Position numbers and translations under genes: made by a program. From NCBI GenBank assembly GCA_046351595.1, contig JAXLYE010000002.1, positions 1,432,022 to 1,496,021 on the forward strand: a stretch of 64,000 nt of DNA. The letters run 5' to 3'. The DNA is from Polyangia bacterium (lineage in GTDB: Bacteria; Myxococcota_A; Polyangia; Palsa-1104; JAEUJZ01). The notes beneath the pieces are model-generated. The model saw only the letters and a program-made list of their open reading frames with translations, did not search any database and was not told the DNA's origin. Below, one piece after another: positions 2,898-55,183 of the stretch (its first letter is position 1; every line of letters begins with the position of its first letter).

Positions 2898-3168
2898 TCG
2901 ATGACACGGGCGACCGGCGCAGGCCAGAGGACAGCCGTAGCGATGCCGCCAGCGACGCTGCGGCCTGCCGCGGGGCGTGTCGGCACGGCGGTCCCGAGGG
3001 CGCGGCGGAGCGGGTCGCATTCCGGTTCGTGTTTTCGGTCGTGTTTCTGGCCGGCAACGGTGCAGGCGCCCCGGCTCGCGCCCGCGCACGGCCGGGGCTC
3101 GCCGGTCCCGTCGTTGCACCGTCGGCAGATTGACCAAAGGCCTTGTAGCTAGGTAAGCTGGGTCGGCT

Positions 3169-4938
3169 GTGAAGACTTGTCCCCAGTGTCAGATCAAGTA
3201 CCCAGACGTGCTTGAGTTTTGTCCTCGGGACGGGTCCCCCCTGCCGGGAGGCGCCGCCAAGGACGCCGCGCCCGATCCGCTCATCGACACCACCATCGAC
3301 GGGCGTTACGCGATCGAAGCGCGCCTGGGCGAGGGCGGCATGGGCGTCGTCTACAAGGCGCGCCACGTCCTCATCGACAAGCCGGTCGCGATCAAGATCC
3401 TGCGCAAGGAGGCGGCGCAGGACACCGCGTCGGTGCAGCGCTTCATCCAGGAGGCCAAGTCGGCCTCCAAGATCAACCACAGCAACATCGTCGACATCAC
3501 CGACTTCGGCGTGCTCCCCGACGGGCACGCCTACTTCGTGATGGAGTTCTTGCAGGGTCCGACGCTGGCGCAGGCGATCCAGGGCGGCCCGATGGACTCG
3601 GCGCGGGTGTGCTCGATCGGTGCCCAGGTGTCGCGCGGCCTGCACGCCGCCCACCAGAAGGGCATCGTCCACCGCGACCTGAAGCCCGAGAACATCTTCC
3701 TCCTCGATCGCGAGGGGCAGAAGGACTACGTCAAGATCGTCGACTTCGGCATCGCCAAGGTCGGCGGCGGCGCCAAGCTGACGCAGGTCGGCATGGTGCT
3801 CGGCACGCCCGAGTACATGTCGCCCGAGCAGGCGACCGGCCAGGAGACCGATCACCGCGTCGATCAGTACGCCCTCGGCTGCATCATGTACGAGATGCTG
3901 ACCGGGGCGGTCCCCTTCCTCGGCGAGCGGCCGGCGCAGACGCTGACCAAGCACGTCTTTGAGCCGGTGATCGCGCCGCGCAAGCGCAAGCCCGAGCTCA
4001 ACATCCCGGCCCCGCTCGAGGCGGTGGTGCTGCGCACGCTCGAGAAGAAGCCCGAGAAGCGCTTCCCCTCGATGCGCGAGCTCGAGCAGGCGCTGATGCA
4101 GGTCGAGCAGGAGATGAAGGGCGGCCGCGTCGTCATCGAGGACGCGAAGCTGCTCGGCAGCGGCGGCGGCAGCGGCCAGATGTCGACGGTGCCGGCGGCG
4201 CCGCAGCAGCAGGGCACCAGCGGTCCCCAGCTTGCGCCCGCGCCCGCGGCCGCGCCCGTGCAGCCCGGCTTCTTCCCGGCCGCCGCGCCGCCGCTCGGCG
4301 GCAGCTACCCGCCGACGCCGGGGGTGATGGTCGCTCCGGGCGTGGCGCCGGGCGGCTCGCTGGTGCGGCCGACGCGCGAGGGCCTCGAGGTGCAGAAGAC
4401 GCGGCAGCTCCGCAAGGTGCTGGCCGCGGTGGCGGGCGCGCTCACCGTCGTCATCGTGCTGCTCGTCTACTTCCTGCTCAGCAAGGACGAGCCGAAGACG
4501 CCGGCGGTGCCGCCGGTCAAGCCGCTGAAGGTCGACACGCCGCCCAAGGTCGACACGCCGACGGTGCCGCCGCCGGTGCGCATCGACACGCCGCCGCCGC
4601 CGGCCACGGTGTCGCTGCTGGTCACCTCCAAGCCGCCTGGCGCCGACGTGGTCGTCGACGGCGACGTCAAGGGCATCACGCCCGTGCGCTTCGTCCACAA
4701 GCGCGGCGCCACGCTCGCCCTCGAGGTGCGCAAGAAGGGCTTCGAGTCGTTCACGCAGGAGCTCTCGCCCGAGAAGGACGAGGTCGTCGACGTCAAGCTC
4801 GAGAAGGAGCGCAGCGGCGGCAAGCGCTCCAACGGCGGCAGCAAGGGTAAGACCACGCCCAAGGCGGGCGGCGGCACCAAGAGCGGCAAGCAAGGCGGCT
4901 CGCTGCCGAGCGGGCTTCGCGATCCGTTCAAGCGCTAA
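3169..4938 (+). CDS. Ser/Thr protein kinase with an N-terminal C4 zinc ribbon, one transmembrane segment and a C-terminal PEGA domain
   Basis: GTG start. Kinase motifs are present: GEGGMGVVYKA, HRDLKPEN, DFGIAKV, PEYMSPEQ. The N-terminus is CPQCx12FCPRDG. A hydrophobic segment runs around residues 415-440. The C-terminus LVTSKPPGADVVVDGDVKGITPV is PEGA-like. Confidence 0.85.
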   Translation: MKTCPQCQIKYPDVLEFCPRDGSPLPGGAAKDAAPDPLIDTTIDGRYAIEARLGEGGMGVVYKARHVLIDKPVAIKILRKEAAQDTASVQRFIQEAKSASKINHSNIVDITDFGVLPDGHAYFVMEFLQGPTLAQAIQGGPMDSARVCSIGAQVSRGLHAAHQKGIVHRDLKPENIFLLDREGQKDYVKIVDFGIAKVGGGAKLTQVGMVLGTPEYMSPEQATGQETDHRVDQYALGCIMYEMLTGAVPFLGERPAQTLTKHVFEPVIAPRKRKPELNIPAPLEAVVLRTLEKKPEKRFPSMRELEQALMQVEQEMKGGRVVIEDAKLLGSGGGSGQMSTVPAAPQQQGTSGPQLAPAPAAAPVQPGFFPAAAPPLGGSYPPTPGVMVAPGVAPGGSLVRPTREGLEVQKTRQLRKVLAAVAGALTVVIVLLVYFLLSKDEPKTPAVPPVKPLKVDTPPKVDTPTVPPPVRIDTPPPPATVSLLVTSKPPGADVVVDGDVKGITPVRFVHKRGATLALEVRKKGFESFTQELSPEKDEVVDVKLEKERSGGKRSNGGSKGKTTPKAGGGTKSGKQGGSLPSGLRDPFKR

Positions 4939-46361: not shown

Positions 46362-47369
46362 ATGCACAGCCAGAAGGGTCGCAGCCGTGAAGATCGTCGC
46401 TTCTCGAACCCGAACAGCCGCTCGGACTACGGCTCCGGCCGCGACTCCTTCCGCGGCTCCGACCGCGACCGCAGCAACGACCGCTACAGCCAGAGCGGCT
46501 CCGGCAACAGCGACTTCGGCCCCGGCGTCAGCGACCGCTGGATCCAGGACCGCGGCCGCGGCTACGGCAACGAGGAGCGCTACGGCCAGAGCTACGGCCA
46601 GAACCGCGGCATCGACGACCGCACCCGGAACCCCTGGGGCCGCGGCGAAGACCGGAGCCCCGGCTATGGCGGCCCCGGCTACGGCAGCCCCGGCTACGGC
46701 CCTGAAGATCGCCACGGCCAGAGCTACGGCCCGGCGAGCCGCGGCGGCTACGGCCGCGACGAAGGCAGCGAGCGCGGCGTCGCCCGCGCCGACCTGAACG
46801 ACGTGTCGCAGAGCTCGGGGGGCGCGGGCAGCCGCGGCGTGTGGCAAAAGGAGCACGAGGGCGCGTTCGCCTCGGTGTCGCGCGGCGGCTTCCTGCTGGA
46901 TCAGCGCGGCTATGGCCCGGACGAGTACGACCGCAACAACTACGGCGGCGCCTACACCGGCGGCTTCAGCCCGGCCGAGCGCGAGTTCTCCGGCAAGGGC
47001 CCCAAGGGCTACGTCCGCTCCGACGAGCGCATCCGCGAGGACGTGTGCGAGCGCCTGTCCGAGGGGCACCTCGACGCCAGCGACATCGACGTGCAGGTCA
47101 AGGACGGCGAGGTCACCCTGGTCGGCCAGGTTTCCGACCGCCGCACCAAGCGCCTCGTCGAGGAGCTGCTCGACCCCATCAAGGGCATCAAGGACGTCGA
47201 GAACAAGCTGAAGGTCCGCATGGCCACCGGCCGCAGCGACGCCGACAAGCTCGGGGGCCAGAAGCCCGAGGGCCAGAAGCCCGAGGGCCAGAAGCCCGCC
47301 GAGCCGCAGCGCACGAGCGACAACGGCAAGAGCGACCTCCCGAAGCTGAGCGGCGGCGCCCGGGCCTGA
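46362..47369 (+). CDS. BON-domain protein with a long intrinsically disordered R/G/Y/D-rich N-terminal region
   Basis: GGAGGA RBS 6 nt before the ATG. The first ~250 aa are low-complexity (GYG, RGG, DR repeats). The C-terminus DIDVQVKDGEVTLVGQVSDRRTKRLVEELLDPIKGIKDVENKLKV is a BON domain. A QKPEG x3 repeat lies at the extreme C-terminus. Confidence 0.7.
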   Translation: MHSQKGRSREDRRFSNPNSRSDYGSGRDSFRGSDRDRSNDRYSQSGSGNSDFGPGVSDRWIQDRGRGYGNEERYGQSYGQNRGIDDRTRNPWGRGEDRSPGYGGPGYGSPGYGPEDRHGQSYGPASRGGYGRDEGSERGVARADLNDVSQSSGGAGSRGVWQKEHEGAFASVSRGGFLLDQRGYGPDEYDRNNYGGAYTGGFSPAEREFSGKGPKGYVRSDERIREDVCERLSEGHLDASDIDVQVKDGEVTLVGQVSDRRTKRLVEELLDPIKGIKDVENKLKVRMATGRSDADKLGGQKPEGQKPEGQKPAEPQRTSDNGKSDLPKLSGGARA

Positions 47370-47379
47370 GCGGCAGCCC

Positions 47380-48162
47380 CTACGGGCTCGGCGGCGTCGG
47401 CGGCGTCGGCGGCTCGTCCGGCTTGTCGCCGCCCGCGCTCGAGCTGTACAGGGCGCTGAGCTCGAAGGCGCGGGCGAGGTCCGGCTGCCCGAGCGCCTGC
47501 GCCGCGGCCCGCGCCGCCCGCCGCGCCCGCCGCACCAGCTCGACGATGTAGCCGTCGAGCAGGTCCATCTGCTCGGTGACGTCGGTGGTGTCGCTGCTCG
47601 CCGGCAGCGAGGTCACGACCGAGGCAATCCCGGCCTGCGCGGCCTTGAGCGCGGCCACCGCGGCCGGGCCGCCGCGCGTCTTGGCCAGCGCCGCCACGTC
47701 CTTGCCGCCGAGCGCCCGCTCGAGCTGGCCGAGCTGCTCGGACAGGCTCTGGCTGTCGCTGCCGGCCGAGCGGGTGTGCACGAGCACGCTGCCCAGGGCC
47801 GGGGCCGCGGCGTCCCCGCTGTCGAGCAGCTCGCTCTCGACGGCCTGCAGCACGGCGCGGGCCTGCTGGCGGGCGCGCTTGCCGGCGCGGATCGCCGCCT
47901 CAAAGGCCGCCGCGGTCTGCCGGCGGCCGGCGCGGCGATCCTCTCGCCCGCTGCTCTTCTTCACGAGCTCGTCCTGCGCCGCCGCGAGCGCGTCCGCATC
48001 CTTCTGGACAAAGCCAAAGTCCCCGACCTGCTTGCCGTAGCGCGCAAAGCCCTGCAGCGTCAGCGCGGCCTGGCGCAGCGTGTCCGTGGAGCTGTACTGC
48101 TTGCCCACCCGGATGAAAGCGAGCCGCCGCTCGGCGGTGAGCTTGGACAGATCGAGGGCCAT
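47380..48162 (-). CDS. Hypothetical alpha-helical protein (260 aa)
   Basis: GGAGGA RBS, ATG at 48162 and high GC3. The longer ORF reaching 48234 has a low-GC3 N-terminal extension and is rejected. It ends 10 bp from the convergent BON gene. Confidence 0.5.
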   Translation of the reverse strand: MALDLSKLTAERRLAFIRVGKQYSSTDTLRQAALTLQGFARYGKQVGDFGFVQKDADALAAAQDELVKKSSGREDRRAGRRQTAAAFEAAIRAGKRARQQARAVLQAVESELLDSGDAAAPALGSVLVHTRSAGSDSQSLSEQLGQLERALGGKDVAALAKTRGGPAAVAALKAAQAGIASVVTSLPASSDTTDVTEQMDLLDGYIVELVRRARRAARAAAQALGQPDLARAFELSALYSSSAGGDKPDEPPTPPTPPSP

Positions 48163-48304
48163 CGGTTCCTCCTTGGGATGTGTAGGGGAGGGCCATACTT
48201 TACACGAGGCCCGGACGGCATCCATCGGGTTCAAGGAGAGGATCTTGCCTGGTGCGAAATCTCATGGGATGGCAATTGGAGCGACGGTGTGATAGCGATT
48301 CGCA

Positions 48305-51300
48305 GTGCCTGGAATCTCGCTATCAGGCGATGGCAAGCCGTCGCTAACGCCAACCTGGGCGCAGGCGCTTCCCCAGGCACCATTACGGGCAATGCTCCTC
48401 GCTGGCGCCTGGAGCCCTGCGGTGCCAGCGGATGGCACGCTATTAGCGGAGCTGGGCAGCAACGCGGAAGCTGTCAGGACGTTGTGCGAGACGCTTGATG
48501 AGCAGCCAGAGGCCCGCGTACTTCACCGCCGTCTCCGCTGGACGCCCGTTGGGGAGCCGGGAGAGCGTTTTGTCTGGGAACAGCCCCGCAAGGCTTGGGG
48601 CTTGCTGGCACCGCTGCTGGATTCTGCGGACCTTGACCGATTTGCGCAGGTAGTCGAAAAGACCCTGCCGTCCGCTTTGGCGGATCAAGAAAGCCAGATA
48701 GCGAGGGGGCCTTCCAAGCTGATTCGTAGGGGGCTGACGTATAGCCTGGCACTCCTCGGCAACAGTGACGGGTTGATCCGCGTCACGCCGCCCCCGAGCG
48801 CACGGGCGACCCGAGTCGTGAGCAGGCTGCTCAAGCCCCAAGCCGAGCGCTGGCTTGCTCTGGCCGAGCATCTGGCCCTCCTGGCCGAAGCCGCCCCCGA
48901 CGCCTTTCTGACAGGGCTCTCCGAGAGTCTGGCGCTGGGCCGTGATGGGATCTCTTCTCTATGGGATGAGCACCCCGAGATCATCAAGCAGGTGGCGCAC
49001 GCTCTGGCCATACTGGCGTTGGATGTCGATCTGCTTGAGCGTGCAGCGCTAGGGCTTGCTGGTCTGGCAGCCGATGGCGGCCAGCCGCGACCCAACGTGC
49101 GCGACTCCCACCCGCTGCAGTGCTTAGAAGATATTTTTGATTATTACTATCCAAAAACAAACGCTTCCATCGAGGAGCGGCTGGACGTACTCCGCAAGAT
49201 CTGTGAACAGTTTGAACCAGTAGCTTGGCCTCTGCTGATGGAGCTTCTACCAGAGCCGCGGATGTTCAGCGTCAGTCTACCGCTACCTCAGGTCTTGCGC
49301 ATCTCTGTACCTCCCCGCGTACGTCAAGCATACCCCGGTGAGGCGTATGGGCAGATCCATGCCTTTTTGATGTTGGCGCTGAGGTTGGTCGGAACGGAGC
49401 CACAGCGGTGGGCCGATCTCCTTCGTCACCTGCATAGGCTACCGCCTGAGCTAGCGATCGAGGCATTGGAGCGCCTGCAAGCGAGCGCTGATGAGATTCA
49501 TGATGAGGAGGGCTTGGTCTGGGCCGCGCTGCGCACGCGCCTGCATGTGCTTTATGATGCGTCAGATGAGTCCAGTAACCAAGAAGAGGCGGCAGCCAAA
49601 CAGCGGATCCAGGACAAGATTTATAAGCTAGATGAGCTTCTTTATGAAAAGCTGACGCCTGCCCGCTTGGCCATCCGGTCTGCTTGGGCCTTTTCAACTG
49701 GAGCGCAGCCGCCGGGCCGATTTCGGAATCTAGAGGAGGAGCGGCAGGCTCTTGGCGAGCATCAGCAAGCCTACATCCGCATGTTGGGCCAGCGCTCGGA
49801 CCGGTGGGATGTATTGACCGAGCTGGCCGAGCGGATCGAGCAACCGTTCTGGTTGGCTCAGGCGCTTGCGATGAGCAGCTGGGCGGGTGAGTTCGAAACC
49901 AGGCTGCTGGCACAGAATTCATTCCATCCCTATGAAAAGATTGCATTTCACTTTCTCGCCTGGCGGCTGGTGAATCGGAATTTTTCTGATACCAGCCATC
50001 TGATGCGACGCCTGATGGCAGAGCATCGGTATGAAGACGTATGGCAGCTGGCTATAGCACTATCGGGTACCGCGGATGAGCGCGAGAGCTGTCTGTGGGA
50101 TCTGCTCGATGAATTAGGTGCGCCTGTCCGCGACGCTTACTGGCGTGAGATCGCGGTCGAGAAGCTGTATGGGAGGGCCCAGCGCCCCCAGCAGGCAAAC
50201 GAGCGGGCCATCTGCCGGCTGAAGGAGCTAGGGCGCTATGACGCGGCCATGCGTGCAGCCCTCGTGCTCAAGCCGCGTGCATCCAATTTGATTCTGCTGG
50301 ATGTGCTCGCCGCGGTTGCCGAAAAGCTCGAGGCGAGCGAGCGGGCCTGGCAGATTGAGAGGGAGCGATTACAGGCGCAGGGTGACCTGCAAGCACAAAT
50401 CAGCCATAGCTTGAGTCGAGGACCCCAGGAAGACAGATATCTTGTTGCGGAGCTGCTTGAGCAAGTCCACCCAAAAGACCCGATGGAAATGGAGAGGGCA
50501 AGGCAGCTGGAGGCGGCACTCCTCAGCCTGTTGGGAGAGACTCATTACAGACCGCGATGGTTGCCAAAGTACATCAGCGAGCATCCCGAAGGCTTTGTCA
50601 GGTTATGCCGGTCCGGTGCGGCCGAAGATCTCCTGGCCCTGTGGGATGGATTTCCTGGTGATGAGTTACCGACGCGCCAGGCGCTAGAACACCTCCATCA
50701 GTGGGCGGAGACGGTACTGACCCTGCTGCCCGCTGGTGACGGGCGCGCCGATGGACATCTTGCCCTGGCAGCGCTCCTGATTCGGCCCAGCGGTACCGAT
50801 GGAATCTGGCCGAGCGAGGCGGTCAGGAGGCTGCTTGATGAGCATCCAGAACTCTACAAGCCACTGCTGGACGCCAAGGGCCACCCCCGAGGCATCAGGA
50901 TGCGGCGGGTCGATACCCTGGTGCAAGAGGCTCGCGAACTGGCAGTCCGCTGCCGAGAAGGGAGTGCGAAGCTGCAGAGCAGCTGGCCGACCACCGCACG
51001 GCTCCTGAGTGAGCTGGCAGAAACGTACGAAGAGAAGGTCGAACTCCAGAGCAGTCTGGATGATTATGACCACCCAGGAATCCCGATGAGTTCCCCCAAA
51101 GCTGCGGCTCAGCCTCTTTTCCCTCTGCTGAAAGTTCAAATCGAGAATTTCCGTGCGGCTGAGCAGCTGAACTTGCCGCTGCACCCGCGGCTGACGGTTC
51201 TATATGGCCGAAATGCCAGCGGGAAGACGACTGTTCTGGACGCGGTAGCGATTGGGCTGAGCGCCATCGCGCGAAGGCTCCCGATGTCCAGCGAGGATGT

Positions 51301-52507
51301 GGAGCAGCGGCTGCCACAATTTCGTGATGCCGATCGTCACACCAGGTGGCGCCAGGGCAAAAGAGAAGAGAAGGCGAAGAGGATCAGCGTGTCGCTCTGG
51401 GGCCAGCCGCAGGAGCGGGGGAGCGACCCGCTCCACTGGCTCGTCGGGAGGCCATGGGCCAGTCGTGGTCCTGAGGTGGCTGATCGTGAGGATCCACAGC
51501 TACAGCCGTACTTGGATGCCGTTAATGAGGCGCTACGCACCGGCGATACGACCATCGCAATGCCGGTATTTGCCTACTATGGAGTTGAGCGCGCAGTCAG
51601 CGAACGAGCCAAAGAGGACGCGAGGCCTCCCAAAGAGAGCCCCAGCCGGCCGGCTGGTCTGGAGGGGGCGTTGCATGCTGCCGCACAGTTTGAAAAAGCG
51701 GCTCAATGGTTCCGAGGGATGGAGGACATTGAAGTCCGCCGCCAGCGTGAGAAGCGCGATTATGAACATCCGGCGCTTGCTGCCGTCCGCGCGGCCATTG
51801 CCGCTGCCGTAAAGACACCGGATGGATCATATGTCCGAAACCTGCGGGTCGATGCGGACACCAGCAAGCTGCGAATAGACTTCGTCCGCTCCAACGGAGC
51901 CGTTGAGAACCTGGAGATTGGACAGCTCTCGGACGGTTTCCGCACCCACCTTGCCCTCGTGTTGGATCTGGCGAGGCGTATGGCCCAGTGCAATCCATCT
52001 CCGGATGAACAGATGGAACGCGATGGCTTCGGTCTCCGATCCAATGCAGTCGTGCTGATCGACGAAGTGGATCTGCATCTCCACCCGGCCTGGCAGCAGA
52101 CGGTCCTTCCGGGTCTGCTCGAAGCTTTTCCCAGGGCTCAGTTCATCGTAACAACCCATAGTGTCCTTACGCTGGGCAGCATCCAGGATGCTCAGCTTTT
52201 CTTCATGGATGGCAGCCATGCAGAGAGTGTCGCTGCTCCGTTCGGAAAGGACGCCAGCCTGATCCTGCGTGAGTACCAGGGGACGGTTCCACGCGCAGCC
52301 GCCGTCGAGGATCGGATAAATGACATCAAGTCGCTGCTGGATCGCCGAGCGTTTGATGCAGCCCGGCGCGAAGTCGATCAGCTGGAGACTCAGCTTGGTG
52401 TAGAGGACCCGGATGTTCAGACGTTGCGCTCCCTTCTTTTTTTCATGGGCCCCGACAGACCATCCCCACAGCCCAGCAGCCAGGAGAGAGAAGAGGGGAG
52501 GAAATAG
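48305..52507 (+). CDS. Giant fusion protein: ~930-aa uncharacterised helical N-terminal region plus a C-terminal OLD/AAA_21-type (PtuA-like) ATPase
   Basis: Continuous 1400-aa ORF with GC3 clearly lower than its neighbours. Walker A LTVLYGRNASGKTTVLDA; Walker B plus LHP motif VVLIDEVDLHLHPAWQ; FIVTTHS motif. Start codon uncertain (GTG 48305). Confidence 0.75.
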   Translation: MPGISLSGDGKPSLTPTWAQALPQAPLRAMLLAGAWSPAVPADGTLLAELGSNAEAVRTLCETLDEQPEARVLHRRLRWTPVGEPGERFVWEQPRKAWGLLAPLLDSADLDRFAQVVEKTLPSALADQESQIARGPSKLIRRGLTYSLALLGNSDGLIRVTPPPSARATRVVSRLLKPQAERWLALAEHLALLAEAAPDAFLTGLSESLALGRDGISSLWDEHPEIIKQVAHALAILALDVDLLERAALGLAGLAADGGQPRPNVRDSHPLQCLEDIFDYYYPKTNASIEERLDVLRKICEQFEPVAWPLLMELLPEPRMFSVSLPLPQVLRISVPPRVRQAYPGEAYGQIHAFLMLALRLVGTEPQRWADLLRHLHRLPPELAIEALERLQASADEIHDEEGLVWAALRTRLHVLYDASDESSNQEEAAAKQRIQDKIYKLDELLYEKLTPARLAIRSAWAFSTGAQPPGRFRNLEEERQALGEHQQAYIRMLGQRSDRWDVLTELAERIEQPFWLAQALAMSSWAGEFETRLLAQNSFHPYEKIAFHFLAWRLVNRNFSDTSHLMRRLMAEHRYEDVWQLAIALSGTADERESCLWDLLDELGAPVRDAYWREIAVEKLYGRAQRPQQANERAICRLKELGRYDAAMRAALVLKPRASNLILLDVLAAVAEKLEASERAWQIERERLQAQGDLQAQISHSLSRGPQEDRYLVAELLEQVHPKDPMEMERARQLEAALLSLLGETHYRPRWLPKYISEHPEGFVRLCRSGAAEDLLALWDGFPGDELPTRQALEHLHQWAETVLTLLPAGDGRADGHLALAALLIRPSGTDGIWPSEAVRRLLDEHPELYKPLLDAKGHPRGIRMRRVDTLVQEARELAVRCREGSAKLQSSWPTTARLLSELAETYEEKVELQSSLDDYDHPGIPMSSPKAAAQPLFPLLKVQIENFRAAEQLNLPLHPRLTVLYGRNASGKTTVLDAVAIGLSAIARRLPMSSEDVEQRLPQFRDADRHTRWRQGKREEKAKRISVSLWGQPQERGSDPLHWLVGRPWASRGPEVADREDPQLQPYLDAVNEALRTGDTTIAMPVFAYYGVERAVSERAKEDARPPKESPSRPAGLEGALHAAAQFEKAAQWFRGMEDIEVRRQREKRDYEHPALAAVRAAIAAAVKTPDGSYVRNLRVDADTSKLRIDFVRSNGAVENLEIGQLSDGFRTHLALVLDLARRMAQCNPSPDEQMERDGFGLRSNAVVLIDEVDLHLHPAWQQTVLPGLLEAFPRAQFIVTTHSVLTLGSIQDAQLFFMDGSHAESVAAPFGKDASLILREYQGTVPRAAAVEDRINDIKSLLDRRAFDAARREVDQLETQLGVEDPDVQTLRSLLFFMGPDRPSPQPSSQEREEGRK

Positions 52508-52509
52508 GG

Positions 52510-53163
52510 TTGAGGCGTATCAACAAAGGTCCCGAGCCCCCTGCCCTCACTGCGTATAAACGCCGTGGGCGACAGCGCCTGGACAGTGACGCACCTCGTC
52601 AGGAACTGCGGGAAGCCTTGTGCCAAGAGCAGCGCTTTCTCTGCGCCTTTTGTCAATCGCACATCACGCCCGATGCGCAAAAGATGCGAATCGCGCATGT
52701 GATCCCCCAGGCCACCAGAGAGGGCGCCAACCTGGGCGTGGAATGGAACAATCTCGTTGGCTCCTGCACGGGTGGTGAGGGGAAACCTGCCAAAGAACAA
52801 CATTGCGATAAGAAACAAGAAGCCCAGCGGATCCCGGAGCGGCTGGACCCCGTGCGCCTACAAGAGGGGACCGTGCGTTTCGACGCTCAGGCTCGCATCC
52901 TCGGCTGCGATCCAGCTGTACAGCATGCGATCGATGATGTGCTCGGTCTGAATATATGGAGTTTGCGAAATTTAAGAGATAGTTGTCTGAAGAAATTAAT
53001 GTATCTTCTAGTTAACGATTGCTCAGAAAAGAAAATAAGAGAAGAGATCAGTAGGCTTGATGATCCATCGGCTCGCGAGTTGCCAGTCTGTGTGGACTAC
53101 CTTCTGTGGCGCCTGCACGAGAAACTTAACACCCTGAATAAGATGGACGCAGGGGCTGATTGA
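52510..53163 (+). CDS. HNH-family endonuclease, TIGR02646/PtuB-like, translationally coupled to the upstream ATPase
   Basis: TTG start 2 nt after the ATPase stop, with GGAGG 8 nt upstream. The N-terminus RRINKGPEPPALT is recalled as characteristic of the 'retron/Septu-associated HNH' family. Cys/His cluster CAFCQSH...H..P.....N....SC...HCD. The 3' third of the gene is about 35% GC. Confidence 0.65.
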   Translation: MRRINKGPEPPALTAYKRRGRQRLDSDAPRQELREALCQEQRFLCAFCQSHITPDAQKMRIAHVIPQATREGANLGVEWNNLVGSCTGGEGKPAKEQHCDKKQEAQRIPERLDPVRLQEGTVRFDAQARILGCDPAVQHAIDDVLGLNIWSLRNLRDSCLKKLMYLLVNDCSEKKIREEISRLDDPSARELPVCVDYLLWRLHEKLNTLNKMDAGAD

Positions 53164-53212
53164 GAGAAGGGGGTGGCTCGGGGCCTTAGCTGAGTGTCCA
53201 TGGACCGCTCGC

Positions 53213-53700
53213 GTGTGCTTGAGCGGTGAGATGAACGGACTGAGAGCCGGGACGAAATGCCTGAGCGCCAGCTCAAAGTGCCTGAGAGCCGGGAGCGAGT
53301 GCCTGAGCGCCAGCCAGAAGTGCCTGCGCGCTGGCTCAAAGTGCCTGAGAGCCCGGAACAAGTGCCTGAGAGCCAGCTCCAAGTGCCTGAGAGCCCGGAA
53401 CAAGTGCCTGAGAGCCGGGAGCGAGTGCCTGAGAGCCCGGAACAAGTGCCTGAGCGCCGGGATCAAGTGCCTGAGAGCCCGGACGAAGTGCCTGAGAGCC
53501 CGGAACAAGTGCCTGAGAGCCGGGATCAAGTGCCTGAGAGCCGGCTCAAAGTGCCTGAGAGCCGGGACGAAGTGCCTAAGAGCCGGCTCGAAGGGCCTGA
53601 GCGCCGGGCCAAAGTGCCTGAGAGCCGGCTCGAAGGGCCTGAGCGGCTGGAGCGAGTGTCTGAGCGGCTGGAGCGAGTGCCTGAGCGCCGGGGCCTAGGG
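53213..53700. repeat. Array of about 23 tandem 21-bp repeats (consensus gtgcctgagagccSggaMcaa) at the island boundary; open in several frames as heptad repeats
   Basis: Seen directly. There are no unique spacers, so it is not CRISPR. Frame +1 (53213..53698) gives KCLRAGS heptads and ends exactly at the patatin gene stop. Frame +2 gives VPESPEQ. The minus frame gives LRHLFRA. Confidence 0.85.
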
Positions 53701-54969
53701 CCAGATCTGCCTGAGGCGGTCGACGCTGCCTTGCAGGCCGAAGCGGGCGCAGACCTCGTCGAAGTGGTTGCGGCGGGCGCGCAGCTGGGCGGCGGCCGAC
53801 TGGTAGCCGTAGCGCAGGATCTGGGCGCGGACCTCGAAGTTCATGGGGTTTGCCAGGAACATGTCGGCCTCGCGCTCGTCGGGCTCAAGGACCAGGATGG
53901 TCGCGTCCTTGTACTCGGCGGCGCAGCGGCGCAGGCCCTGGTGCAGGCGGGCCTTGATCGACAGCCGCATCGCCTGGTCCGAGACCGTCAGGAGGCCGAG
54001 CTCCGCGAGGTGGCCGGGGCGGCCGGGCAGGTAGCCGCCGTGCGGCTCGGGCGCGCTCGGGTCGTGGCGGAAGGGCACCATGGGGTTGATGCACAGGACC
54101 AGCTTGGCGCCGCGCCGCAGCGCCACGTCGACGTGCTCGGCGCGGCCGGTGCCGCCGTCGACATAGTCGCGGCCGCGGATGCGCACCGGCTCGAACCAGA
54201 CCGGGATGGCGGAGCTGGCGCAGATGGCCTCGGCGATGCCGACGTCGGCGAGCGAGCCGCCCAGACCCCCGGGCGGTCCGCTGCCGAAGGCGCCCACCGG
54301 CCCACCCCCGGCCGCGGCAAGCGGCCCACCCCCGGCCGCGGCAAGCGGCCCACCAAGGATCGCGCGGTGCCCGGTGTCCAGGTCGTTGACCGGGATGTAC
54401 AGCTCGTGCGGCATGTCACACAGGCGCTCGGGGATGCCGTGCCGGCGTAAGAAGCGCTCGAGGTAGCGGTGGTAGGGCCGCAGCGAGAACAGCCCCGAGG
54501 GCAGCGCCCGCACGAGCTCGACGGGCAGCTCGGCCAGGCTGCGGCGGCCGCGGGCCACGCTCCACAGCACCCGCGCCGCCGCGACCGAGAGGCGCAGGCC
54601 CTGGGCCGCGGCGCGCAGCGGCTCGACCCGGAACATGTCCGTGCGGTGGTGCGGGATGAGGTGCTGCTCGAGCGGGTCGCCCAGGACCGCGTGCGCCAGC
54701 CGCCGCGGCGAGATGCCCGCGCACAGCGCCGTCGCCAGGTACGAGCCGGCCGAGATGCCGATGTAGATGTCGAAGCGCGTGGTGTCGAAGGGGCGGGGCG
54801 AGCGCTCGCCGTAGGCCGGGCGGAAGTAGTCGTCGATCGCGGCGAGCGCGCCGAGCTCGTACATGGCCCCGGTGATGCCGCCGCCGCACAGGCACAGCGC
54901 CAGCTTGTCCCGACCCGGGCCTGCCGCCTGTCCCGGGGGTGCTGCCGCGGCGCTTCCGACACTCGTCAT
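53695..54969 (-). CDS. Patatin-like phospholipase
   Basis: Oxyanion hole GGGITGAMYELG, nucleophile elbow GISAGS, and a catalytic Asp in DGG (YVDGGTG). A 24-bp duplication encodes GGGPLAAA twice. Confidence 0.8.
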   Translation of the reverse strand: MTSVGSAAAAPPGQAAGPGRDKLALCLCGGGITGAMYELGALAAIDDYFRPAYGERSPRPFDTTRFDIYIGISAGSYLATALCAGISPRRLAHAVLGDPLEQHLIPHHRTDMFRVEPLRAAAQGLRLSVAAARVLWSVARGRRSLAELPVELVRALPSGLFSLRPYHRYLERFLRRHGIPERLCDMPHELYIPVNDLDTGHRAILGGPLAAAGGGPLAAAGGGPVGAFGSGPPGGLGGSLADVGIAEAICASSAIPVWFEPVRIRGRDYVDGGTGRAEHVDVALRRGAKLVLCINPMVPFRHDPSAPEPHGGYLPGRPGHLAELGLLTVSDQAMRLSIKARLHQGLRRCAAEYKDATILVLEPDEREADMFLANPMNFEVRAQILRYGYQSAAAQLRARRNHFDEVCARFGLQGSVDRLRQIWP

Positions 54970-55183
54970 CGCAGGCAGCGTACCACGCCGCGGAAAAGGT
55001 TGGGCGGCTCGCTGCCGGACGTGCCCGGGGCCGGGGCCGGGGCCGGGCGCCTTGAGACCTGCTGGGGGACTGGTGGGGTCTTATGAGGCCGGGGGGCGCC
55101 GTAAAGTCGGGCAGGGACATTGACAACCGCCGTCGGAAAGGCCGAAATGTTGCGGCATGCATCCGCTCGCGTCGTCTATCGCT

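Follow-up and report, generated by a model that had tools for sequence, protein, structure and literature searches.

Type I Septu systems pair an ABC-ATPase, PtuA, with an HNH nuclease, PtuB, and structures of the complex are available as PDB entries 8EE4 and 8EE7 (Li et al. 2024, as cited in PMC12819146). In other PtuAB systems, ATPase-dependent cleavage of tRNA or DNA by PtuB is accompanied by growth arrest (PMC13096335, PMC12819146, PMC11555353). In retron Ec78, PtuA has an N-terminal extension that contacts the complex of reverse transcriptase (RT), noncoding RNA (ncRNA) and multicopy single-stranded DNA (msDNA) by which PtuAB is kept inactive until a phage interferes (PMC12819146). For stand-alone Septu, control by protein and sensitisation through a phage tail fibre have been described (PMC12819146), and a tail-sheath candidate trigger for Septu Ec-B88 was tested and rejected (PMC13096335). 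N- and C-terminal fusions to the ABC core are described as a recognised route of diversification (bioRxiv 10.1101/2024.01.29.577857, citing Krishnan et al. 2020). Here we describe a PtuA-PtuB locus in a 64,000-nucleotide stretch of a Polyangia bacterium genome (assembly GCA_046351595.1, contig JAXLYE010000002.1, positions 1,432,022 to 1,496,021 of the forward strand; hereafter the window), in which the ATPase is fused to a 920-residue N-terminal alpha-solenoid. A preliminary description of the locus, made from its letters and open reading frames (ORFs), had presented the pair as a candidate new Septu-like defence system on a low-GC island. Its Septu identity and horizontal acquisition were supported by our analysis and its newness was not; the N-terminal domain had not been discussed. 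What is new is this fused domain, together with the protein family that is linked to Septu through it.

The locus consists of the following features.

48305-52507, forward strand: fused solenoid-linker-PtuA gene, product of 1400 amino acids from GTG 48305; a single ORF with constant GC content by codon position
48305-51064, forward strand: N-terminal alpha-solenoid, residues 1-920, HEAT/ARM-like, starting with a small unit of helices and a beta-hairpin
51065-51124, forward strand: flexible linker, residues 921-940, with a predicted local distance difference test score (pLDDT) below 50
51125-52507, forward strand: PtuA ABC-ATPase core, residues 941-1400, identified with PADLOC, PDB 8ee4 and Pfam
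52497-52501, forward strand: GGAGG ribosome-binding site for ptuB, lying in the end of the fused gene and read from the sequence
52510-53163, forward strand: ptuB, HNH nuclease, 217 amino acids, TTG start, PADLOC PDLC00322

The C-terminal part of the fused protein was matched by models of PtuA. PADLOC PDLC00311 aligned with residues 941-1376 over positions 3-445 of the 455 in the profile (E value, 1.4e-89), and among the PADLOC families listed a further 23 of 25 were PtuA models. The Septu PtuA structure 8ee4 matched the core over 5-451 of its 465 residues (E value, 1.6e-33), and the region matching PtuA extended overall from residue 941 to 1378. Both AAA_21 (82.5 bits; cutoff, 27) and AAA_15 (52.1 bits; cutoff, 32.1) of Pfam scored above their cutoffs, in agreement with the ATPase type, OLD/AAA_21, that had been proposed from its motifs. 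The NCBIfam equivalog of the retron Ec78 protein, NF041760, scored 181 bits, which is under its 500-bit cutoff, and retron PtuAs aligned only with the C-terminal half of the core. The three motifs listed in the preliminary description (GRNASGKTT, DEVDLHLHP and TTHS) are all present, and the Walker A Lys, the Walker B Asp-Glu and the H-loop are intact. Walker A GRNASGKTT starts at residue 968 (nucleotide 51206), with K974 as its Lys; Walker B with the catalytic Glu lies in LIDEVD at 1249-1255, DEVDLHLHP being read from 1253 and the DE at nucleotide 52049; a signature-like LSDGF is found at nucleotide 51926; and the H-loop TTHS is at residue 1283 (nucleotide 52151).

The partner gene encodes a PtuB protein with the N-terminus (M)RRINKGPEP. 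PADLOC PDLC00322 aligned over positions 1-208 of 215 (E value, 5.1e-40), and NCBIfam PtuB NF041761 (2.8e-21; 76.4 against a cutoff of 150) and TIGR02646 (4.8e-12; 46.2 against a cutoff of 52.15) gave matches under their cutoffs, so that the assignment first made from the Cys/His cluster to PtuB and TIGR02646 is borne out. Residues C45, C48, H63, N81, C86, H98 and C99 are invariant in three PtuBs of fused systems and align to the HNH of Ec83 PtuB, and the cluster CxxC...H...N...C...HC is intact. Defence by Septu Ec-B88 and by retron Ec78 depends on the residues equivalent to those of this pair, namely, the Walker A and B residues, the catalytic Glu and the HNH His and Asn (PMC13096335, PMC12819146). 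The two genes are coupled as had been described: the fused gene stops at TAG 52505-52507, ptuB starts after a gap of 2 nucleotides at TTG 52510, and GGAGG precedes this start with a spacer of 8 nucleotides. Parts of the HNH gene had been said to reach about 35% GC, and a patch at 52940-53060, which encodes NIWSLRNLRDSCLKKLMYLLVNDCSEKKIREEISR, indeed has 30-36% GC, far under the 60% of the block in which the genes lie. Through this patch, the ptuB protein stays homologous to other PtuBs.

The best PADLOC models for the pair were PtuA1 and PtuB1. No RT gene is present in the block, which holds two ORFs only, and 47000-55000 had no Rfam match at an E value of 1 or below, either to a retron ncRNA or to another RNA gene. 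Because there is no room for an RT and no Rfam match, we assign the pair to Septu and not to a type I-A retron. Because existing PtuA and PtuB models match full-length in the arrangement of type I Septu, the pair is, as judged from these models, a type I Septu and not a new system; in this respect, the earlier term 'candidate new Septu-like system' was overstated. Like type I Septu, the locus has the ABC-ATPase core, the Cys/His cluster of the HNH PtuB and a coupled, same-strand operon of two genes with neither RT nor ncRNA. Unlike type I Septu, it encodes a PtuA of 1400 amino acids, which is far from the standard size (relatives typically have 420-475 amino acids), and the 920-residue solenoid is foreign to Pfam, NCBIfam and PADLOC. 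The best 120 relatives of the PtuA core were all shorter than 530 amino acids except P0183 (801 amino acids), which, like P0180, is a contig-truncated copy of a solenoid-PtuA fusion; the nearest unfused PtuA, P0182, is 48% identical to the core. The type I-A retrons (Ec78/Eco7 and Ec83) resemble the locus in that a distinct module for regulation or sensing is joined to the PtuAB pair; in Ec78, this module is contacted through an N-terminal extension of PtuA (PMC12819146). The window differs from them in having neither an RT gene nor a retron ncRNA, and the Ec78 extension, which is only some 65 residues long, has another protein as its binding partner, whereas the domain found here is a covalent fusion of 920 residues. 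Gabija, PARIS, OLD and HEC-01 to HEC-04 also couple an ABC ATPase to a nuclease; in contrast to these, the nuclease here is an HNH protein (PtuB) and not a TOPRIM, PIN or NERD protein, and the ATPase belongs to the PtuA clade.

The first 940 residues of the fused protein had no match to a named family in Pfam, NCBIfam or PADLOC. An AlphaFold2 model based on 28 homologues showed an all-alpha solenoid with a mean pLDDT of 85.9, which opens with a small unit of three helices and a beta-hairpin and closes in the low-confidence linker at 921-940. By this model, the solenoid is a distinct, independently folded domain. Its top fold matches include FANCD2/FANCI and SF3B1, all with template modelling scores (TM) of 0.28 or below, and are generic. 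The fusion recurs in at least eight protein clusters (P0001-P0006, P0180 and P0183). P0002 to P0006, which come from different samples, have 1363-1378 amino acids and solenoids of 34-65% identity, and ptuB lies directly downstream in every fused locus with enough sequence (L001, L003 and L095). When the solenoid and the PtuA core were compared in the same proteins, their identities were 65 versus 82%, 49 versus 69%, 47 versus 67% and 35 versus 40%, respectively.

The start of the fused gene was also considered. An identical protein (P0001) has an NCBI gene model of 1361 amino acids, annotated 'AAA family ATPase [Polyangia bacterium]', and the alternative starts are ATG 48392 (M30) and the GTG 48422 chosen by NCBI (V40). 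The residues P16, W18, L31 and W36, which are conserved in the family, precede V40. GTG 48305 is likely to be the start, in preference to that of NCBI, because the homology of the family reaches P16 and W18, upstream of the NCBI start. A start at ATG 48392 would keep L31, W36 and the conserved LLAGAW motif, and the NCBI start excludes this motif. The linker holds a further in-frame ATG at 51086 (M928) with AGGA 6 nucleotides upstream; the Met is found in P0002-P0004 and is absent from P0005 and P0006.

A profile search was run exhaustively over 1.84 billion representatives, clustered at 50% identity. The solenoid family comprised 7,839 representatives at an E value of 1e-3 or below and 4,412 at 1e-30 or below. 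A word-indexed homologue search had given the impression of a tiny family of 28-30 proteins, which was misleading and is refuted by these numbers. In proteins of about 1250-1370 amino acids that have no ATPase, the C-terminal 920 residues aligned with the solenoid, of which they covered 93-98%; in nearly all of the top 150, which typically have about 1250 amino acids, the solenoid occupied approximately residues 340-1260, up to the C-terminus. Because these standalone members end where the linker begins, the point of fusion to PtuA corresponds to the natural C-terminus of the family. Their typical architecture consists of a PD-(D/E)xK nuclease, an AAA+/STAND-like domain with no P-loop and the 920-residue solenoid (P0013 from Achromobacter sp. 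Root83, P0010, P0018, P0024 and others). The model of the N-terminal extension of about 350 residues had a pLDDT of 87.3 and divides into two parts, and D54, E74 and K84 are invariant in the extension. Structural matches of its AAA+/STAND-like alpha/beta domain were RFC1 (8.7), ORC1 (8.5), Apaf-1, CED-4 and Avs4 (7.7), and a profile search of PDB sequences with the extension returned noise only. No Walker A motif was found in any of 10 standalone sequences, so a functional Walker motif of the STAND type is missing.

Other members of the family carry different domains around the same solenoid. Some have an N-terminal helix-turn-helix of the XRE type, P0063 and P0164 have a PNP_UDP_1 phosphorylase domain in place of the usual N-terminus, and P0007 and P0042 carry in addition, at the C-terminus, an ABC ATPase from a different clade. 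In P0007 (1630 amino acids; L004, 1441-7055), a nuclease-like N-terminus is followed by the solenoid and by a HEC-01A/MAD3-like ABC ATPase at the C-terminus, and a PIN_12 gene lies directly upstream; here the solenoid is paired for a second time, and independently, with a system of ABC-ATPase and nuclease. The genomic contexts of standalone members were inspected by eye in six loci. Integrases were present in L005, L090, L091 and L092, type I restriction-modification (R-M) genes in L007 and L090, and PIN, PemK or MazE toxin-antitoxin (TA) genes in L005, L091 and L092; no integrase, R-M or TA gene was seen in L009. The fusion to PtuAB, the nuclease and PNP domains and these island contexts make the solenoid family a strong candidate, as judged from its sequences and surroundings, for a new single-gene defence class.

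A constant repeat domain with swappable effectors is the design of Avs/NLR-like proteins and of DSR2. The standalone relatives share with the STAND/NLR-like and DSR2-like proteins (Avs1-5, bNACHT and DSR2) a succession of effector, AAA+/STAND-like domain and helical-repeat C-terminus, as well as effector swapping and island contexts. This tripartite layout is a resemblance of design and not evidence of homology, and the Avs, NACHT and DSR2 models in PADLOC gave no sequence match. In contrast to active STAND NTPases, the central domain of the standalone proteins has no Walker A and is therefore not one of them, and the protein in the window has lost both effector and central domain, so that the repeats alone are retained.

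The genomic setting of the locus was examined by composition and by comparison with a sister metagenomic contig (L094; ERZ650309 NODE-2874), which was found by a metagenome scan with the gene on the left flank. The features that delimit the locus are listed below.

48212-53237, no strand: foreign low-GC block of 5,026 bp, delimited by the ends of the homology to the sister contig; outlier in GC and in 4-mers
47380-48162, reverse strand: left core gene, hypothetical protein of 260 amino acids (hyp260), GC at third codon positions (GC3) of 0.85-0.99, 93% identical in the sister contig, no Pfam match
53695-54969, reverse strand: right core gene, patatin-like phospholipase, Pfam Patatin 6e-18, GC3 of 0.94-1.00, 93% identical in the sister contig
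53240-53692, no strand: 21-bp tandem repeat, 21.6 copies, consensus CTGAGAGCCGGGACGAAGTGC, found with TRF, between the convergent ptuB and patatin genes

The GC content is 0.57-0.65 over 48000-53500 and 0.71-0.78 on either side, and in bins of 1 kb the block has a mean of 0.603 versus 0.713 +/- 0.035 for the remaining 59 kb. In a 5-kb scan of tetranucleotide distance, the peak of 0.55 fell on the block and values elsewhere did not exceed 0.30, and the block is the sole compositional outlier of the window. Codon-position GC from 48.5 to 52.4 kb followed one frame (GC1, about 0.70; GC2, about 0.43; GC3, about 0.65), and GC3 was about 0.60-0.71 in the ORFs of the block and 0.93-1.00 in flanking genes, or overall about 0.65 against 0.97-0.99. 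The flanks are of housekeeping type and of host composition, with DnaB, a BON-domain protein and hyp260 on the left and patatin, BamD and an Fe-S oxidoreductase on the right. The drop in GC that had been noted between 48165 and about 53200 was confirmed. The island, first given as 48165-53700, has narrower borders: the block itself extends from 48212 to 53237, and 53240-53692 is a conserved repeat of the backbone.

The sister contig and the window share the backbone BamD-patatin-repeat ... hyp260-BON-DnaB, with the patatin gene adjoining BamD in both. Nucleotide identity of the flanks is 90-95%, and protein identity is 92-100% for BamD, patatin, hyp260 and DnaB and about 82% for BON. Homology stops on the left at window position 48211 and on the right at about 53238. 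Only about 1.3 kb separates patatin from hyp260 in the sister contig, where the block is replaced by a segment of 964 bp (2923-3886) with 58% GC and a single DUF3800 gene (Pfam, 1.6e-18). Because a sister contig with flanks about 90-95% identical lacks the pair and has a DUF3800 gene at the same site, the block is, by this sequence comparison, a horizontal acquisition and not part of the core genome, as had been anticipated. The two genes are the only ORFs of the block, which contains no integrase or transposase, again as described earlier, and a search of its surroundings for repeats, either att-like direct ones or terminal inverted ones, gave nothing convincing. The site between hyp260 and patatin is a hotspot with variable cargo, exchanged with no integrase or repeats in view. 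In a synteny test based on patatin among GTDB genomes, the relatives were at most 62% identical. No Septu was found within 10 kb in these more distant relatives (patatin 60-62% identical), and L011 and L012 keep the adjacency of BamD and patatin with a different other side, so that they provide no clean empty site. No sigma-70-like site emerged from a promoter scan, and matches resembling terminators did not exceed the shuffled expectation.

The 21-bp tandem repeat is confined to one place in the window (17 matches versus 0.64 expected). Because the sister contig, which has no Septu, carries 15 copies at the same position, the repeat is a backbone feature that borders the insertion site, outside the Septu block. 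It was considered as a part of the system and rejected, being missing from the other fused loci and present in the Septu-less sister contig. It was also considered as coding for a heptad protein; the differences between copies, inspected by eye with the frames read, were not biased to third codon positions, and this candidate was set aside as well. Several frames on both strands are open across the repeat. On the other side of the locus, ARAGORN called a tRNA-Arg(tct) of 83 nucleotides at 47229-47311 on the reverse strand. The Rfam tRNA model gave no match there at an E value of 1 or below, and the call was rejected as a probable false positive. The called segment lies within the gene for the BON-domain protein, where it overlaps a coding tandem repeat of 15 bp.

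Taken together, the locus is probably an acquired type I Septu with a coupled operon of PtuA and PtuB, in which the solenoid, joined through a linker of 20 residues, serves as a sensor or regulatory module that gates PtuAB. We infer that, throughout its family, the solenoid provides the constant module for sensing or regulation and that the attached enzymes are interchangeable effectors. According to this interpretation, the solenoid would take the role that the RT-msDNA complex has for PtuAB in retron Ec78, by holding or positioning the oligomer of PtuA. A ligand derived from the phage, in all likelihood a protein, would bind the solenoid, this binding would license the PtuA-dependent nuclease activity of PtuB on tRNA or DNA, and the cleavage would arrest the infected cell. 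A domain of 920 residues on each subunit may also alter the assembly of a horseshoe hexamer with two PtuBs. The faster divergence of the solenoid is compatible with a domain that tracks a ligand, and it is not specific to one.

Several points weigh against this interpretation. A quicker divergence of helical repeats would also be expected from lower structural constraint alone. The association of the family with defence islands comes from the six loci viewed by eye. The ATG at 51086 in the linker and its AGGA form a possible internal start, from which free PtuA may also be made. The NCBIfam scores for PtuA and PtuB and the TIGR02646 score are under their curated cutoffs, and the label 'defence hotspot' for the insertion site is a suggestion only, the DUF3800 gene of the sister contig not being an established defence gene. 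The roles of the fused protein and of the solenoid family in defence and sensing are themselves predictions. A wider proposal, which we put forward tentatively and regard as rather doubtful on present evidence, is that the solenoid constitutes a large unnamed class of sensors in bacterial immunity (4,400 clusters or more at 50% identity) with swappable effectors, here grafted onto PtuAB. The effectors considered under this proposal are the PD-(D/E)xK nuclease, the PNP phosphorylase and the ABC ATPase partnered by an HNH or PIN protein.

Other explanations concern the function of the solenoid within an otherwise recognisable Septu. The core matches unfused PtuA 8ee4 end to end, the 48% identity of P0182 shows how close an unfused relative can be, and HEAT/ARM solenoids are generic scaffolds; the system could accordingly be an ordinary Septu in which sensing takes place within the PtuAB core, as in unfused Septu, and the solenoid is a passive scaffold, an arm for oligomerisation or localisation. 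We consider this unlikely. The solenoid is the sole constant part of a family with interchangeable enzymes, which fits a sensor or regulator better, and 920 residues kept across lineages at only 34% identity indicate a function under selection. It is less likely still that the solenoid recruits the target of PtuB, such as tRNA, ribosome or DNA, and sets what is cut and not when. Such a role would agree with the differing substrates of PtuAB systems, which include tRNA-Tyr for Septu Ec-B88 and retron Eco7 and DNA nicking in vitro (PMC13096335, PMC12819146). It would also agree with several of the top fold matches (FANCD2/FANCI and SF3B1), which are solenoids associated with nucleic acids or ribonucleoproteins, although matches with TM of 0.28 or below are generic. 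In the standalone family, however, the solenoid also occurs together with a PNP domain, whose substrates are nucleotides and not polymers, and this is at odds with the presentation of a substrate.

Two further explanations question the fusion or the defence function as such. A gene-model artefact, in which separate solenoid and PtuA genes were merged when a stop codon was lost through a sequencing or assembly error, or in which PtuA is normally made alone from ATG 51086, could draw on the linker ATG with AGGA 6 nucleotides upstream and on the Met kept in P0002-P0004. We regard it as very improbable, in that the frame is unbroken in independent assemblies from different samples (P0001-P0006, P0180 and P0183), P0005 and P0006 have no Met at this position and the standalone members end exactly at the start of the linker, as a true domain fusion predicts. 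Weak N-terminal P-loop matches to RecF, Rad50 and SMC_N could suggest that the ATPase is of the Rad50/RecF/SMC type and serves, with its nuclease, in DNA repair or chromosome maintenance and not in defence. These matches span only about 45 residues around Walker A, whereas PtuA models cover the full 440 at 1e-89; in addition, the partner is a full-length PtuB, and foreign composition and absence from the sister genome are unfit for a housekeeping function. A repair ATPase is very improbable here and the least probable of the explanations weighed.

For the insertion site, the presence of differing low-GC cargo in two near-identical genomes illustrates, on a small scale, a hotspot at which cargo is swapped although no mobility gene can be recognised. 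For Septu, how stand-alone systems recognise infection is still debated, and the natural fusion of PtuA to a large domain offers a concrete hypothesis and a tractable construct. The fusion also ties a very large family, with thousands of clusters and no model in Pfam, NCBIfam or PADLOC, to a validated defence effector. If the solenoid does act as the sensing module of PtuAB, the PtuAB pair would be a portable cassette of effectors, taken over on at least two occasions by sensing modules that are unrelated to each other, the retron and the solenoid, and the ligand of the solenoid would be a direct handle on the trigger of Septu.

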